Below, one piece after another: positions 15,110-58,481 of a stretch of 64,000 nucleotides of DNA. The position numbers were made by a program, and so were the translations under genes. Numbering within the stretch: the first letter of the stretch is position 1; each line of letters opens with the position of its first letter. Source of the DNA: Spirochaetia bacterium (GTDB lineage Bacteria > Spirochaetota > Spirochaetia > WTKD01 > G963693115); NCBI GenBank assembly GCA_965226055.1, contig CBDDCA010000006.1, forward strand, positions 512,001-576,000, read 5' to 3'. The notes beneath the pieces were generated by a model. The model did not search any database and was not told where the DNA came from. It worked only from the letters and a program-made list of their open reading frames with translations.

Positions 15110-15127
15110 AAAAAAAAAAAAAAAAAA
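15110..15127 (-). repeat. Homopolymer A18 (T18 on coding strand) upstream of the large lipoprotein gene
   Basis: 18 consecutive A; TGnTATAAT extended -10 on the minus strand at 15068-15076. Confidence 0.9.
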
Positions 15128-42557: not shown

Positions 42558-42586
42558 TTGACAAAAAAAAAAAAAAACCATAAAAT
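42558..42586 (+). promoter_or_regulatory. Near-consensus sigma70 promoter TTGACA-N17-TAAAAT whose spacer is a poly(A) tract
   Basis: ttgaca (42558-42563), 14 further A plus cca, taaaat (42581-42586); A15 run 42563-42577. Confidence 0.85.
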
Positions 42587-51235: not shown

Positions 51236-52225
51236 TTACATACCTTCAATAATATCATATAACTGCTTTTGTTCAGAATCTAAACTTGGATAGAGTACCT
51301 CTTTTGCAATAGCTTGAAATGATGTTTTCTCTACAGGATTAAAAGTCATCCCTTTATCAATTAATGTTTGCTTTAATCTTTTCTGATCTTTTTGAAATAT
51401 ATCACTTTCATATCGTTGCATTTCTTGTCCTGCATCAATAACAATAGCTTGTAAATCTTGAGGAAGACTTTTTAGTTTTTTATCACTAATAACTACATAG
51501 ATCCAACTGATAACATGTTCAGTAAGATTTACATATTTCTGTACCTCAAAGAAATTTGCACTATATATCAATGAAAGTGGATTTTCCTGTCCTTCAATAG
51601 TACCTTGTTGTAAGCTAGTAAAAACTTCCGAAAATGCCATTGGAGTAGGCTTTGCACCAGCAGCTTGCCAATAACTCACAAAAAGAGGAACATTTGGCAC
51701 TCTCAATATCATGCCATTTAAGTCTTGTGGTGCATTTATAGGACGGTTTGAAGTAAGATTTCTTGCTCCTCTTTGAAAATAAGCAAGCGGATACAGTCCT
51801 AAATTATTTTGTATTTGCTCAGCAATTTTTTCCCCTGGCTCACCTTTAATTACTTTTGTTAAGTGTTCAGAGTCTCTTATAAGAAATGGCACTGCAAGCA
51901 TTGCCGTAAGCGGAGCATTAAAGTTTTGCATGGACTCTCCTGTAATAGTCATGTCTACTACCCCTGCTTGTATTCCATTTAATAACTCAACTTCTTTTCC
52001 TAGCTGTTCATTAGGATATACCTGTACTTCAATTCTCCCATTGCTTTTCTCTTCAACAACTTCCTTAAATTTTACAGCTGCAAGATGCCATGAATGCTGT
52101 TCATTTGCTAAATGACCAAACTTAAGAACAATGGGCTTCTCTGATTTTGCTTCATTTCCTCCACCAGAAAACACAAGCTGACTTACAACACACATGAGTA
52201 TGAGCACATATAATACTTTTTTCAT
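51236..52225 (-). CDS. dctP: TRAP transporter substrate-binding protein
   Basis: VYPNEQLG, LRVP, PTPMAFSEVFTSLQQGTIEGQENP; RBS GGAGG. Confidence 0.94.
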   Translation of the reverse strand: MKKVLYVLILMCVVSQLVFSGGGNEAKSEKPIVLKFGHLANEQHSWHLAAVKFKEVVEEKSNGRIEVQVYPNEQLGKEVELLNGIQAGVVDMTITGESMQNFNAPLTAMLAVPFLIRDSEHLTKVIKGEPGEKIAEQIQNNLGLYPLAYFQRGARNLTSNRPINAPQDLNGMILRVPNVPLFVSYWQAAGAKPTPMAFSEVFTSLQQGTIEGQENPLSLIYSANFFEVQKYVNLTEHVISWIYVVISDKKLKSLPQDLQAIVIDAGQEMQRYESDIFQKDQKRLKQTLIDKGMTFNPVEKTSFQAIAKEVLYPSLDSEQKQLYDIIEGM

Positions 52226-52320
52226 AGTAACCTCCGTATATAAAATAGTATATATACATTATATCATACGAGAGAAGGAATAATATAGGTGTTACATTGA
52301 AAATATACTATACTAGTATC

Positions 52321-54314
52321 ATGGCACTTAATTTTGACACATTAAAAGCAATTCTTTCTGAGAACAAGGCATATCTTAATCAAGATGGCACCATAAACAA
52401 TGTAGAGTTACATAAACTGGCACAAAAATCAGATAATACGCTTGTAGACATGCTTGTTGCTCATGATGAAACACGCCCTGAATTTTTTCTAAAGCGTGGA
52501 AGCTATCATGTATTTTTACAGGATAAATTTATTGATTACATATCACACAAAGACTTTCTGATGAATTCTTATACAAAATACAAAAATAAGATAGGATTGC
52601 ATGATGGCAAAGATTTTATCCAAAAGAACAGAGAGGTAGTGCTGAGTTTTCCCTTTAAGGATTGTGTGCTTGAAGGAGGACAAACAAAAGATGAAGAAAA
52701 GCGACAAGAAATTTACTATAACAAAGTGCTAGCATCCGAAGAGATAGATCGTCTTCTCGATCCAAAAGTGCTTACAAATGCAAAGCGATACAGCACAAAT
52801 CAAGACAAAGTGACAGTGAAAGAATGTGATACATTTCAAAGGGATGCTGAAATAAACAAGCAACGTGGTACCAGCGAAGACACCATAACCGATAATCTTA
52901 TTATAAAAGGCAATAATCTCATTGCCTTACACAGTATAAAACAACACTTTAGAGGAAAGGTAAAGCTAGTATATATAGATCCCCCGTATAATACAGATAG
53001 TGATGTTGATACTTTCAAGTACAATAATAGCTTTAAGCACAGTACTTGGCTTGTGTTTATGAAAAATAGACTAGAAGTAGCAAAAGAATTATTACGAAAT
53101 GACGGACTTATTATTATAGATATAGATCATTTTGAGCTGTTTTATTTAGGCACTTTATGTGATGAAATATTTGGGAGAGAAAATAGACTAGGAATACTTG
53201 CAGTACAGCATAACCCTGGAGGCAGAGATAATGAATTTTTTGCAAATAGCCATGAAAATAAATTAGTCTATGCAAAAAACAAAGAACTAGCACAGATTTA
53301 TAATTTTATTTCATCTGAAGAAGAACTAAACAAAAAATATAACAAAAAGGATGCACAAGGAAGATATAAAGAGCGAGGCTTACAAAGAGTAGGTGATGGC
53401 TCTAATAGAGAGGAAAGCCCTAAATTATTTTATCCTATTTTTTACAATCCTGAAAACAATACCATTGCTTTTGAACAACAAGAAGGATATGTTGAAATAC
53501 TGCCTATAGATAGTGATGGCCTTGAAAAAAGATGGCGCTGGAGTAAACAAAAGGTTATCACAGAGTGGGATAAACACAATGTTTTTGTGCGAAATGTAAA
53601 AGGAAAATATCAAATATATACTAAAAAGAGAATTGAAGAAGACACTGGAATAAAGCCAAAAACATTGTGGGTAAACTCTAAACATGCAGGAACAAATGGA
53701 ACAAAGGCATTAAAGGAACTATTTTCTAAAAAAGTTTTTTCTTATCCTAAGTCTCCGTTTATGGTAGCTGATACATTACAAGTTGCCACACAGCCCAACG
53801 ACATAGTCCTAGACTACCATCTTGGAAGTGGTACCACTGCAGCAGTGGCTCATAAAATGGGAAGGCAATACATCGGTATAGAACAGATGGATTACATTGA
53901 AGACATAGCAGTAACACGACTACAAAAAGTACTAGAAGGGGAGCAAAGTGGCATAAGCAAAGCCGTGCGCTGGCATGGGGGGGGGGGGGGGTAAGTAGCT
54001 TTGTCTACCTTGAACTAAAGCAACACAACCATAGATTTTTAGAACGCATCCATAACGCCACTACTTCAGAAGAACTCATAGCATTACAAAAAGATATTCT
54101 GCAACAAGCTCTCATTGATTATCGTCTTAATCTCAATGAAATTGCAACAAAGCAAGATGATTTCAAAGCACTCTCTCTTACAGATAAAAAACAAGTGCTT
54201 TTTGATTTTCTTGATTGTAATCAAATGTATGTCAATTACAGCGAACGAGATGATGAACACTATCACTGTAGCACACATGAAAAACATATTTCCGAAGATT
54301 TTTATCGCTCATAG
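52321..54314 (+). CDS. mod: Type III R-M adenine methyltransferase (Mod), frameshifted at a G15 tract (stops at 53994 as assembled)
   Basis: IKGNNLIAL, YIDPPYN, FSYPK, LGSGTT, YIGIEQMDY; the conserved C-terminus (SFVYLEL...LDCNQMYVNYSE...FY) continues in another frame from 53991 to TAG 54312-54314. Confidence 0.9.
53977..53991 (+). repeat. G15 homopolymer within mod
   Basis: tggcat followed by 15 G then taagtagc; G13 or G16 would restore the frame. Confidence 0.92.
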
Positions 54315-54340
54315 TGGCAAAGAGCAAATGGAGTATCCCC

Positions 54341-56911
54341 ATGAATAACAAAAAACAATATCTTTTTGAGCAATACAATTCGTTAGAAAGTGCATTAGTA
54401 ATGGAGCAAGCTCCTACCTATACAGGATTACCTACAATACCAACATGCATTACCGATAACATTGCACACACACTTCGTCCTTATCAAGAAAAAGCTATGA
54501 AGCGTTTTATTCATTATCATACACAATACAAGCACAGAAATGGCAATAATCATATACTCTTTGAAATGGCAACAGGTACAGGCAAAACATTGATAATGGC
54601 ATGTATAATGTTATATCTGTATACAAAAGGCTATCGTAATTTTCTGTTCTTTGTAAACTCTACCAATATTATAGAAAAAACAAAACAAAATTTTACTGCA
54701 CAAGGCACGAGCAAATATTTGTTCACTGACAAGATTGAAATTGACAATCAAACAGTAGAAGTACAGTCAATCAATAGCCTTACAGAAACAAATGATACAT
54801 GTATCAATATTTTATTTACCACCGTACAAGGCTTACACTCATCACTACAAAACCAAAAAGAAAACAGCTTTACCTTAGAAGATTTTAAGGAATATAGCAT
54901 TGTCCTCCTTGCCGATGAATCACATCACAACAACACCGCTACTAAAAAAGAAATAGAATTACTATATTCATGGGAAAAAAGTATCATAAATATTTGGCAA
55001 CAGCATCCAGACAATCATCTCCTTGAATTTACCGCAACAGCCGAATTGAACAAAAATGCCATACAAGAGAAATACTATAATAAAGCAATTATTCAATATG
55101 GATTAAAAGAATTTCGCAGTGATGGATATTCAAAAAATATCTTTTTAGCAAAGACAGACACAGACGAAATAAAAGAGCGGTTTCTCTTAGCAATACTGCT
55201 AAGTCAATATCGATTAGAAATTGCTTCTAAGTATAGACTAAACATAAAACCTGTTATTTTATTTAAATCAAAAACAATACATGAAAATGAAATGCACACA
55301 AAACAATTTAACGAAATAATAGAGAACATGGAAATAGAAGATATACAGGAATTATTTCTCATACTTAAAAAATACAGACATATTGATATATACAACAATG
55401 TATACAATTTTTTTATTGATGGAGCTTTCTCTCATACCTATGTATTAAAAAGAATAAGAATATCTTTTTCAAAAGAAAAAGTCATCAATGTTAACAAAGA
55501 TGAAGACGTAAAACATATGCAAATAACACTCAATACTTTAGAGGATACTCATAATAAATATCGTGTTATTTTTGCAGTAGACAAACTTAATGAGGGCTGG
55601 GATGTACTAAACTTATACGATATAGTAAAACTATACGAAACACCGAGCGTAGCAAAAAAGCCCCCAACAGCACGAGAAATTCAGCTTATTGGACGTGGTG
55701 CAAGATTATTTCCCTACCGTATAGACGATACTCAAGAACAGTATAAACGAAAATATGATAGTGATGGAGATAATGAATTAGCCGTATTAGAGCAGTTGCA
55801 TTTTCATACTTCTGATGGTTCAAAATATATTGAACAGCTCAACAAAGATTTAGAAGAAGCAGGGCTAGTTGATAGCACCCTTCAAGAAGAAAAGGTAACA
55901 TTAAAAGAAGACTTTCGTAACTCAGAAATATACAAAGAAAAACATGTATATGTAAACAAAAGAGTAAAGCGAGAAAAAAAACATAAGTTTCAGATGGACT
56001 TATTTGGTGGCATCAGCGATGTAAAAACAGATGAGCGTTTTAAGAGTCTTACAGGCAATTATAAAGTGAAAATCAATTTAGATACTTTTGAAATGTACGA
56101 AAACATGAAAATAAAGGAATTTCAGTACACAAAGGAATTATCTATAAAACTCAAAGATGTTCCCGATCATGTTTTTATAAAAGCCATTGCAAAGAATAAA
56201 TACTTTACATTTGACACTATAGCAACAGTATTAGATATTACAAGTATGATGAACTTAAAAGAAACATTCTCAGATAATTATTTACACATTTCATATCCAA
56301 AAGAATATCAGAAAAAGGATGTAAAACACCCTTATAATCTCATGAAAGCATGTAGCAATTTCTTACACAACCTTAAACAACTGCTTCATGATGTATACAC
56401 TGAATATGTAGGCACACAAACACTATACCCAAAACCTCTTATAGAAATATTTAAGGACAAAAAAATTATCATACATAAAAATAATATAATTGATGGAACC
56501 CAATATAAGTATTTTGCACAAAATATAGTAAGAGGCACAGAACAGGAAATTCAATTTATAAAAGATATATGTAATTTCTTTGAACAGAGAAATGAAAAGA
56601 TTGCATGGATTATACGCAATGAAAAAGATTTTCAAATATATAATTTTGAAGATGGAAAAGCTTTTGAGCCTGACTTTCTTTTGATGTTACAAAAAAATGA
56701 AACACAAATATACCAAATTTTTATGGAACCTAAAGGCGATCATTTACTAAAATATGATAGATGGAAAGAAACGCTTATGGAAAACATAGCAAAACTTTCT
56801 CACAGAGAACATGGAGATTTCAACTATACCATTATAGCAATGCCTTTTTACAATATTGATACGAGAGGCACATTTCGTACTATATTAGAAGAGAAACTAT
56901 ACCCGCAGTAG
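54341..56911 (+). CDS. res: Type III R-M restriction subunit (Res)
   Basis: EMATGTGKT, LADESHH, EFTAT, KLNEGWDVLN, QLIGRGAR, C-terminal FEPDF...EPKG nuclease motif; ATG 54341 after GGAG (alternative GTG 54314). Confidence 0.92.
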   Translation: MNNKKQYLFEQYNSLESALVMEQAPTYTGLPTIPTCITDNIAHTLRPYQEKAMKRFIHYHTQYKHRNGNNHILFEMATGTGKTLIMACIMLYLYTKGYRNFLFFVNSTNIIEKTKQNFTAQGTSKYLFTDKIEIDNQTVEVQSINSLTETNDTCINILFTTVQGLHSSLQNQKENSFTLEDFKEYSIVLLADESHHNNTATKKEIELLYSWEKSIINIWQQHPDNHLLEFTATAELNKNAIQEKYYNKAIIQYGLKEFRSDGYSKNIFLAKTDTDEIKERFLLAILLSQYRLEIASKYRLNIKPVILFKSKTIHENEMHTKQFNEIIENMEIEDIQELFLILKKYRHIDIYNNVYNFFIDGAFSHTYVLKRIRISFSKEKVINVNKDEDVKHMQITLNTLEDTHNKYRVIFAVDKLNEGWDVLNLYDIVKLYETPSVAKKPPTAREIQLIGRGARLFPYRIDDTQEQYKRKYDSDGDNELAVLEQLHFHTSDGSKYIEQLNKDLEEAGLVDSTLQEEKVTLKEDFRNSEIYKEKHVYVNKRVKREKKHKFQMDLFGGISDVKTDERFKSLTGNYKVKINLDTFEMYENMKIKEFQYTKELSIKLKDVPDHVFIKAIAKNKYFTFDTIATVLDITSMMNLKETFSDNYLHISYPKEYQKKDVKHPYNLMKACSNFLHNLKQLLHDVYTEYVGTQTLYPKPLIEIFKDKKIIIHKNNIIDGTQYKYFAQNIVRGTEQEIQFIKDICNFFEQRNEKIAWIIRNEKDFQIYNFEDGKAFEPDFLLMLQKNETQIYQIFMEPKGDHLLKYDRWKETLMENIAKLSHREHGDFNYTIIAMPFYNIDTRGTFRTILEEKLYPQ

Positions 56912-57091
56912 ATAAAAAGGAACTTTATACAATAGTAACCCAATCTTATTGAAAATATATTTTTAGAAGCTGATCTAAACAAGAGAAAAAAGTAGAAAAT
57001 CTCAATTAAGTATACATCAAACTAGTATTATGATTATACTATTGATAGTTTTTTATTGTATAAAACATTAAAATTAAGCTATAATAAAATA

Positions 57092-57916
57092 ATGAAGAAA
57101 GTAAAAATACAAGTGTTGAATTTTAAGCTATTTCCCAAAAAAAGAAAAGGTGCTAAAGTATATGGTGAGTTATTTCAAGATATTTTTAAGAAAAGAATTA
57201 TTGGCAATATTACAACAGATAGAAAAGGAATGATAAAAAAACTTATAAAACATAACGATCATGTATTCTATGGAACTATTTCAACATTTATACATATTTC
57301 AGAAAATGATGATTGGTTAAATACTGAAAAATTAGAAACTGAACATGAAAAATATATCCCTGATAATAGATATCCAAAAGAAAAAACAGTAGAATATTTT
57401 TTAGATACCCAATTACATAAACTATTCTTATTAGCAAAAAGTAAAACAGTCAATATCAATCAAGTAGAAAAATTATTAAAAAGTATCTTTAAAAAATATT
57501 TAGGTGATGATGAAACTATGAATATAGAAAAGATGGTGAAAAAAGAGATTATTGATCTAATATTAAATAACCCATTATATAAACTGTCTGTATCTATAAC
57601 CCCAACGAATGATGAATCATTAGAGGCATTCGAAGATTTTTTAGATAAAGATCTAAAACAATCAGGAACATCTAAATTTGACGCAGAGTTTAAAGCACCA
57701 TCAAATAAAAGTACGATGAAAGATAGTAAGTTTGCCTCAGCACTTGTTAAATTAGCACAAAATAATGGAAAAGCAAAAGCTGTTATAGAAAAAGATGGTA
57801 AAAAACAAACTATTAACACTGATGATCATGTACAAGATTTTTATTTAGAGTATGAAAAAGAATTTGAAGATGGCATTGAATATTTTATAAAAAATACATT
57901 TGAGAATGAAAAATAA
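57092..57916 (+). CDS. DUF4747-like protein
   Basis: By recall of the family pattern: LNFKLFP...Y.ELF, YGTISTF, WLN, IPDN..P, H.LF, ITPTN, LAQNNGKAK; very AT-rich. Confidence 0.65.
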   Translation: MKKVKIQVLNFKLFPKKRKGAKVYGELFQDIFKKRIIGNITTDRKGMIKKLIKHNDHVFYGTISTFIHISENDDWLNTEKLETEHEKYIPDNRYPKEKTVEYFLDTQLHKLFLLAKSKTVNINQVEKLLKSIFKKYLGDDETMNIEKMVKKEIIDLILNNPLYKLSVSITPTNDESLEAFEDFLDKDLKQSGTSKFDAEFKAPSNKSTMKDSKFASALVKLAQNNGKAKAVIEKDGKKQTINTDDHVQDFYLEYEKEFEDGIEYFIKNTFENEK

Positions 57917-58481
57917 GTACAATTTGTCATATACAGGAATATTTCTCGTTGCACTTCAAAGGAAAGCGTATAAAAAACTAAAATTTTTTAGTGCTATTAT
58001 AATAGCACTAGCTGCTGCACTTTTTATTGGATGGATAGATAGATCTTATGAAATTCTCAAAGAACTGCTCTCTATTGGGATACTCATTTTCCCAAGCCTT
58101 TTAGGGTTTAGCTTGGGAGGATTAGGACTCATTATAGGATTGAGCTCAAAAGAATTTGTAACAACTCTTTCAAAGCCTCGAAAAAATAAAGACTTTAGTC
58201 TTTACGAAGAATTAGTAGGAATATTTTCTTTCTCTGTACTGATGAATGGGATAACGCTCCTTCTTTATTTTTTTGGTAAAATAGGAATCAAATTATTTCA
58301 GTTTATTTCAATGCCTTTGTTTGATAACTATGTAGAGTGCATCAATACCATCTTTATATTTATATACATGTGTTCTACGCTTTATTCATTATTTCTTTCT
58401 ATTGATACCATAGCAACAACATTTTCTACTGCTAGAGCATATACTTTGCACCTTCAAAATAGACAAGATAATACTACATAA
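57906..58481 (+). CDS. Membrane protein (about 4 TM) coupled to the DUF4747-like gene
   Basis: Overlaps the upstream stop by 11 nt; hydrophobic segments including FPSLLGFSLGGLGLIIG. Confidence 0.75.
   Translation: MKNKYNLSYTGIFLVALQRKAYKKLKFFSAIIIALAAALFIGWIDRSYEILKELLSIGILIFPSLLGFSLGGLGLIIGLSSKEFVTTLSKPRKNKDFSLYEELVGIFSFSVLMNGITLLLYFFGKIGIKLFQFISMPLFDNYVECINTIFIFIYMCSTLYSLFLSIDTIATTFSTARAYTLHLQNRQDNTT

Follow-up and report, generated by a model that had tools for sequence, protein, structure and literature searches.

Phase-variable type III DNA methyltransferases are well known, and repeat-switched mod genes are common, with passages of one survey of REBASE (PMC5909438) counting 662 of them among 3805 mod genes. 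The switches described for these genes act early and turn the whole enzyme off. What, then, does a long homopolymer do when it lies near the 3′ end of such a gene? A switch confined to the C-terminus raises the question of whether restriction could be varied while protection stays on. We addressed these questions for a run of 15 guanosines (G15) in the mod gene at a type III locus for restriction and modification (R-M), mod-res, which resides in a 64,000-nucleotide stretch of a Spirochaetia genome (contig CBDDCA010000006.1; this whole stretch is hereafter called the window). The reading that we favor, to which we assign a probability of roughly 45%, is that the tract is a real contingency switch, now OFF, and that it serves as a plain ON/OFF control of the whole system. 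The features discussed are collected in Table 1.

The G15 tract is the sole G/C run of at least eight nucleotides in the window. The open reading frame (ORF) that enters it opens with TTG at 52297, and ATG 52321 is the likely start. This frame reads ...SGISKAVRWHGGGGG (...AVRWHGGGGG at the tract) and then encounters a TAA codon to give a current G15 product of 557 amino acids (aa). Another frame, beginning at 53994, continues for 106 codons without a stop to TAG 54312-54314. Scripted frame arithmetic, with the run set to 12-18, yields proteins of 663 aa for G13 and 664 aa for G16, both with the C-terminus ...HEKHISEDFYRS. Runs of G12, G15 or G18 result in products of 556-558 aa that end at once with the TAA, and runs of G14 or G17 result in products of 558 or 559 aa that carry a single extra lysine before a TAG. 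These findings bear out a preliminary description of the same DNA, which had noted the G15 run with TAA directly behind it and had proposed that G13 or G16 would restore a 107-codon C-terminus lacking internal stops. Its further claims, that the truncated Mod keeps the DPPY motif, the target-recognition region (TRD) and the S-adenosylmethionine (SAM) motif, and that res is intact, are likewise correct, as all three elements lie upstream of the tract and the 856-aa res product covers 99-100% of its homologues.

We also noted that both off-frames are closed directly behind the tract. The five letters TAAGT, which encode the two or three residues (G)-V-S that are added in the ON frame, are the same ones that supply both off-frame stops. 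A double stop of this kind, defined as a stop in the +0 frame plus a +1-frame stop within two codons, occurs at 465 of 200,000 random genome positions. The tract sits at 84% of the mod ORF, behind all parts of the methyltransferase (MTase) that are defined by Pfam, and the longest open stretches in mod's own two off-frames are 35 and 38 codons, compared to the 106 codons of the tail. As the run lies inside an ORF, comprises at least nine mononucleotides and sets the frame by its length, it belongs among simple sequence repeats by the cut-off of nine or more mononucleotides, which we took from passages of PMC5909438.

Motif order, the N-terminal region, the family profile and the adjacent full-length res, with its SF2 helicase core, all fit the assignment of mod, predicted from its sequence, as the Mod subunit of a type III R-M system and a beta-class N6-adenine methyltransferase. 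The match to PF01555 (N6_N4_Mtase) upstream of the tract is complete (profile positions 1-219 of 221), and the short form covers positions 167-593 of the 708 in the PADLOC profile PDLC03635. The DPPY motif (YIDPPYNT) lies 5′ of the variable region and the SAM motif (HLGSGTT) lies 3′ of it. When compared to P0018, a 658-aa in-frame Mod from another assembly whose Res partner is 75% identical, the flanks of the window protein are 62-85% identical and its center is 15-35% identical. Several TRD alleles thus occur on a conserved Mod backbone, with P0018 providing a third in addition to those of the window and of the strain X5 described below. In the 2.25-Mb genome (G000) where mod resides, methylase genes and their remnants are unusually numerous, with 21 matches to the N6_N4 methylase family PF01555, several of them with internal stops.

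The sequence downstream of the tract is the true C-terminus of mod, because it matches both the C-termini of homologues and the end of the Mod profile. Specifically, the tail corresponds to the last 107 residues of full-length homologues. It aligns to residues 541-647 of the 650-aa homologue P0002 (36% identity, E 2e-20), is 31% identical to P0004, identical to P0018 at 69 of 104 positions, and covers positions 594-700 of the 708 in PDLC03635 (E 4.2e-22). Most homologues listed are 630-660 aa long. The tail retains all five columns that are invariant across a 41-row alignment. In the strand right behind the tract (F.Y.EL), F and E are invariant and Y and L are nearly so.

How did the tract arise? 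Members of the Mod family carry a W-x-G-G-G-x-F-x-Y site between the last methyltransferase helix and a conserved beta-strand. Among the 120 homologues listed, this site holds GGG in 70, GG in 40, GGGG in one and GGGGG in one (P0018). The corresponding junction was found in 61 of 79 loci taken from genome contigs, where the longest G run is 2 (43 loci), 3 (11), 4 (6) or 5 (1). In a same-class sample of 401 genomes, 14 have a homologue, and 12 loci other than the organism's own (from six genomes) contain the junction, none with a run longer than 5. Because these relatives encode the glycine site with mixed GGN codons, we conclude that the G run is derived, having grown from three glycine codons. 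DNA for the closest allele, P0018, was found neither among the 401 genomes of the class nor among the 79 contig loci. Metagenomes searched with a pattern of the left flank followed by 11 Gs gave a single locus (L119), in which a G11 run lies in unrelated sequence with no blastn match to the window. In two of the relatives, Mod homologues of the family are clustered: one (G002) has two close together (L019/L027), with the only Res homologue found located 7 kb away, and another (G071) has three close together (L011/L025/L033), with the only Res homologue found located approximately 630 kb away.

The tract is also one of a large set. The genome, which has a GC content of 35%, was scanned whole for G/C runs and contains 32 that are at least nine nucleotides long. 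Their lengths are 9, 11, 12, 13 (three runs), 14 (13 runs), 15 (ten runs), 16, 18 and 20, with the mode at 14-15. Lengths of 8, 9 and 10 are represented by four runs, a single run and no run, respectively, and the length distribution is thus bimodal. Twenty-four of the 32 long runs occur at the 5′ ends of ORFs of at least 250 codons, for which a crude frame count gives 12 ON and 12 OFF. Four paralogous hsdS genes (approximately 380-395 aa, with PF01420 present in two of the two tested) carry runs of C14-C20 in codons 11-17, in the context MSKQDKK..TPPPPPPIRFKQDDGSDFPDW, and a crude frame test places three of these in frame and one out. Because four hsdS genes carry long C runs, R-M genes belong to the slippage-prone set of this organism. 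The hsdS copies themselves look scattered and orphan, as one adjoins RadC and SocA-like genes and another adjoins a broken PF01555 methylase.

Several other characteristics of the long runs were observed. Whichever strand is coding, the G-strand context is 5′-G(n)TA-3′ in 31 of the 32 runs of at least 9 (positions 53977-53993 for the mod tract). The same context occurs in 18 of 128 runs of 6-8 and in 70 of 828 runs of 5. The base preceding a long run is T (16 runs) or C (16 runs), never A. In another genome of the class, two long runs (L006, L010) read G(n)TAAGTAGC, as the mod tract does. Long A/T runs are present as well, including A18 at 15110-15127 and A15 at 42563-42577 in the window, and the genome holds approximately 30 A/T runs of length 13-30 versus only four of length 10, which likewise reveals a second mode of long lengths.

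Other strains were examined by using Logan contigs, where X1, X2 and X3 are three samples of one study and X5 comes from another. Such contigs hide minority lengths, the depth is 5-8, and one of X1-X3 may be the source of the window. The contigs of X1 and X2 cover all of mod-res and are identical to the window there, and one of X3 reads through the tract ungapped. In X5, the flanks and res are 95-98% alike (differing at 2-5% of positions), and 694 TRD bases have been swapped for 517 others. The X5 sequence aligns through all 15 Gs, giving a run of at least 15, and its contig ends within the tract. Contig breaks occur at 54002-54024, next to the tract, in X3 and at the tract itself in X5; they are compatible with length heterogeneity but also with shallow depth or badly read G runs, and we base no conclusion on them. 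X5 also lacks one base at 54336, between mod and res.

Could mod simply be a decaying gene, which the G-run tendency of this lineage has knocked out with no adaptive role? The OFF length is common to all three samples of the one study, and methylase genes do decay here, as the internal stops in several PF01555 matches indicate. However, no invariant residue has been lost from the tail, which stays open for 106 codons, res is whole, the tract has been retained in a strain with another TRD allele, and both off-frames stop at once. We consider decay unlikely. A homopolymer miscall, whereby the run is really G16 or G13 and mod is plainly intact, must also be weighed, as a stretch of 15 identical bases challenges any sequencing technology and the platform of these runs is not on record. 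Separate contig builds of the three runs nevertheless agree on G15, though a shared platform bias or source run is possible, and many other tracts in the genome are likewise out of frame. This explanation appears quite improbable to us.

If the tract is indeed a contingency switch, then gain or loss of G residues at replication would toggle mod between two forms. G13 and G16 would yield full-length Mod (663 or 664 aa), and the other lengths would yield a cleanly ended form of 556-559 aa that lacks the strand and the helical C-terminal domain (CTD) of approximately 100 aa; the sequenced population would be in the short, OFF state. As described in passages of PMC4490356, EcoP15I Mod is built from an N-terminal domain (NTD), an MTase domain (to residue 516) and a CTD (539-644), along with an inserted TRD. 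Dimerization takes place via the NTD and MTase domain, Mod2 methylates by itself, and extensive contacts to Res come from the CTD of one protomer. Because the CTD of EcoP15I Mod contacts Res, we infer that the short form would lose its coupling to Res, and, taking short Mod as unable to support Res, restriction would therefore be off. Polarity could make a second contribution by lowering Res, since translation in the G15 state stops 347 bases before the res start instead of 27 bases before it in the ON state, and a consensus scan of the + strand between the tract and res detected no promoter-like site. Short Mod is probably impaired as a methylase too. The several TRD alleles would fit the phasevarion class, and the intact res would fit a defence role at least as well.

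The EcoP15I Mod2Res1 complex (4ZCF; PMC4490356 in the passages at hand) also offers a guide to domain layout, as its Mod and the window protein share the order NTD, MTase domain with inserted TRD, and C-terminal domain of approximately 100 aa. The EcoP15I CTD is described as a globular alpha/beta domain, whereas the tail of the window protein is predicted to be mostly helical (isolated tail model, mean predicted local distance difference test score, or pLDDT, of 79.9). For comparison of the whole protein with solved structures, a model of the allele P0018 was used rather than one of the window protein; its mean pLDDT is 66.6, its TRD is unreliable (pLDDT below 50), and its residues 470-650 score 82-95. 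In this model, the last MTase helix (522-531) is followed by a coil (532-550) containing five glycines (545-549), a strand (551-556) and helices that extend to residue 652. The model resembles 6k0w_D (Z 24.9, root-mean-square deviation 3.7, 282 residues aligned), EcoP15I Mod (4zcf_A; Z 23.8, 5.5, 305) and 7dsu_B (Z 21.9, 4.0, 281). In the EcoP15I comparison, the last aligned residue is 578 in the whole-protein structure alignment, and the sequence alignment to 4zcf ends at chain residue 467.

These comparisons locate the cut. Alignment to the model ends before the glycines for MboIIA (model residues 184-529), M1.HpyAVI (187-529/532), M.BceJIV (185-531) and the CcrM MTase domain (183-544). RsrI (186-556) and TTHA0409 (187-556/559) align through the strand 551-556 behind the glycine run. 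As modeled, therefore, the cut falls behind the last MTase helix, and the conserved strand and the helical domain are lost. Judged by the same model, the short form keeps all that the smallest active relatives have and loses a strand that is common to the larger ones, and this strand may belong to the MTase fold.

These structural data bear directly on a different explanation, according to which the switch is domain-specific. The 557-aa Mod would still dimerise and methylate, but would be uncoupled from Res, such that restriction phase-varies, the genome stays protected and re-activation is safe. The PF01555 match is complete before the tract, and the DPPY motif, the TRD and the SAM motif are all kept. 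MboIIA, M1.HpyAVI, M.BceJIV and the CcrM MTase domain are active on their own and end before the equivalent point, and the partition of dimerization and Res contacts in EcoP15I (PMC4490356, in part) points the same way, as does the intact res, which makes safe switching useful. Moreover, poly-G-truncated R-M subunits that still work are known, at least from passages on NgoAV HsdS (PMC6789123; bioRxiv 10.64898/2026.01.10.698759) and the S subunit of HpyUM032XIII, with its G12 tract (PMC4450513). In both cases the poly-G tract is in mid-gene and the shorter R-M subunit works with changed properties. These are specificity subunits whose target sequence is altered, whereas a type III Mod with a proposed loss of Res coupling is at issue here, and we use them as a working model for restriction-only switching.

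Against such a domain-specific switch stands the strand behind the tract, with its invariant F and E and near-invariant Y and L. Because RsrI and TTHA0409 align through it, a piece of the MTase fold may be lost with the cut. The pLDDT of 82-95 for the C-terminal part of the whole-protein model suggests tight packing rather than a free module, and C-terminal truncation often inactivates methylases, with one 10-residue case given in passages of PMC4450513. A complex prediction for Res (856 aa, 40-row alignment) plus the 106-aa tail (41-row alignment) gave a score of 0.00 versus a mark of 0.32 in a run without controls, and is uninformative either way. On balance, we view a switch of restriction alone as possible but doubtful.

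A further explanation is that G15 DNA yields the long and the short Mod simultaneously, through slippage in transcription or frameshifting by the ribosome. RNA polymerase slippage can arise at long homopolymers. A mixture of long and short Mod would accord with EcoP15I, where, of the two Mod CTDs, a single one is in contact with Res in the structure as described in the passages of PMC4490356. None of the five runs that hold the stretch is on record as RNA, however, and we judge simultaneous production of both forms to be highly improbable.

Returning to the plain ON/OFF switch, a number of observations weigh against it. No variation in tract length was seen, as G15 is present in the contigs of all three samples (one study). 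The preliminary description had proposed a reversible switch, and this proposal is upheld in its context, namely the bimodal set of 32 runs, the hsdS tracts, the derived state of the run and its persistence in X5, but not with regard to length variation. Loss of mismatch repair as a cause of instability was rejected, given the presence in the genome of MutS (MutS_I) and MutL (MutL_C), which leaves no defect that would raise slippage. A Foldseek search with the tail alone gave no match at E ≤ 0.001 (E above 1), and hence no clear match to a solved structure. Likewise, VIA-align of the tail versus 48161 chains reached a best Z of 4.5 with common helical arrangements only, and no solved Mod chain was among the matches listed. 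As the tail by itself finds no clear structural counterpart, position is the basis for equating it with the EcoP15I CTD. Finally, the site of the tract may reflect mutational opportunity, offered by three glycine codons, and not selection for that particular place.

An unrelated genome provides a parallel. The locus L051, titled as a Bdellovibrionales metagenome-assembled genome, contains a C19 run (L051:5958-5976) in a 722-aa Mod homologue (L051:4001-6169). The run is in frame, encodes six prolines, lies inside the same C-terminal domain approximately 64 codons from the end, and is the sole G/C run of at least 12 in that 1.8-Mb genome. Its location is a further point in favor of switching restriction alone, and it leads us to suggest, tentatively, that C-terminal homopolymer tracts might be a recurrent device of this Mod subfamily, arising here and in L051 independently and unplugging Res from a Mod that still methylates. 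A 349-aa ORF lies between mod and res in L051.

The res gene itself covers 99-100% of homologues that are 850-878 aa long, and the closest of these is P0122 (75% identity, 100% cover). A hairpin over the res ribosome-binding site was considered as a coupling device and rejected, as its fold is no better than those of shuffled sequences (z 0.21). Directly 3′ of res, positions 57056-58481 carry a DUF4747 gene (286 aa, 9.5e-32) overlapped by a 193-aa ORF that has no family match. This pair resides in the most AT-rich part of the region (57000-57999, 24% GC) and gave no PADLOC match, but may be another defence-island gene pair.

Table 1. Positions of the features of the mod-res locus in the window, and of the hsdS tracts in the genome (G000).
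Feature	Position	Strand	Evidence or remarks
G15 homopolymer, proposed slippage site	53977..53991	+	Direct read of letters, genome run count, strain contigs
TAAGTAG, stops for both off-frames directly 3′ of tract	53992..53998	+	TAA for G12/15/18, TAG after one codon for G14/17; V-S in ON frame
Type III mod as now read, 557 aa	52321..53994	+	PF12564 1.1e-14; PF01555 2.3e-36; PADLOC MTase_III PDLC03635 8e-139; stop TAA 53992-53994
Out-of-frame 107-codon mod tail: conserved strand plus helical C-terminal domain	53991..54314	+	Homologue, profile and fold-model evidence; stop TAG 54312-54314
Variable target-recognition region (TRD) of mod	53102..53797	+	Replaced in run X5; 15-35% identical to P0018
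res, intact, 856 aa	54341..56911	+	ResIII 2.2e-29; REase_III PDLC03651 1.4e-119, profile 26-859 of 873; GGAG 54330-54333 before ATG
Promoter-like site TTTTCA-16-TAAAAT upstream of mod	52219..52246	+	Weak consensus match; region has 15 such sites vs shuffle mean 26.1
hsdS C18 tract	C1:13372-13389		Locus L123
hsdS C14 tract	C3:96327-96340		Locus L122
hsdS C15 tract	C4:27722-27736		Locus L121
hsdS C20 tract	C6:662400-662419		Locus L120

How does this arrangement compare to phase-variable systems that have been described? The mod tract resembles the phase-variable mod genes of the REBASE survey (PMC5909438) in having a frame-setting mononucleotide run of at least nine, several TRD alleles on a conserved backbone and other switchable R-M genes in the same genome, and differs in that its run is located at 84% of the ORF, behind the Pfam-defined MTase parts. 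The passages of that survey do not mention 'C-terminal' or 'truncat', and its text is without 'spiroch', 'Treponema' or 'Brachyspira', figures and supplements being outside this scope. The mod gene of MmyCI from Mycoplasma mycoides (PMC3498834) likewise has TAA directly behind its repeat, conserved stops in both off-frames, clean truncation and, in MmyCI, a functional res. Its repeat, however, is an AG dinucleotide from nucleotide 320, and in the off state the product is missing the entire enzyme. C-terminal phase variation in Helicobacter canadensis (PMC2823697) also involves 3′-proximal poly-G and allows most of the protein to be made in any frame. There, runs of at least 10 affect eight genes, none of them for R-M, and most frames alter few residues, whereas the tract in the window removes approximately 107 residues including a whole domain; read-level variation was shown in that species, unlike in the window. 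In literature text that includes PMC5909438 and PMC3874151, we found no report of a type III Mod that loses just its C-terminal domain to a repeat tract, although figures and supplements were outside this scope and absence is thus not proven.

The significance of the tract depends on what the short form of Mod does. If it is simply dead, then the locus just adds one more ordinary example to a known class. If instead the short form is still an active methylase, re-activating an R-M system would no longer carry the risk of self-restriction, and, should the device prove to be recurrent in the subfamily, the restriction barrier could be dropped and regained at random with the chromosome never left unmethylated. 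Together, mod and the four hsdS genes bring R-M genes into this organism's very large set of poly-G contingency loci, and its barrier to foreign DNA could vary as a result.

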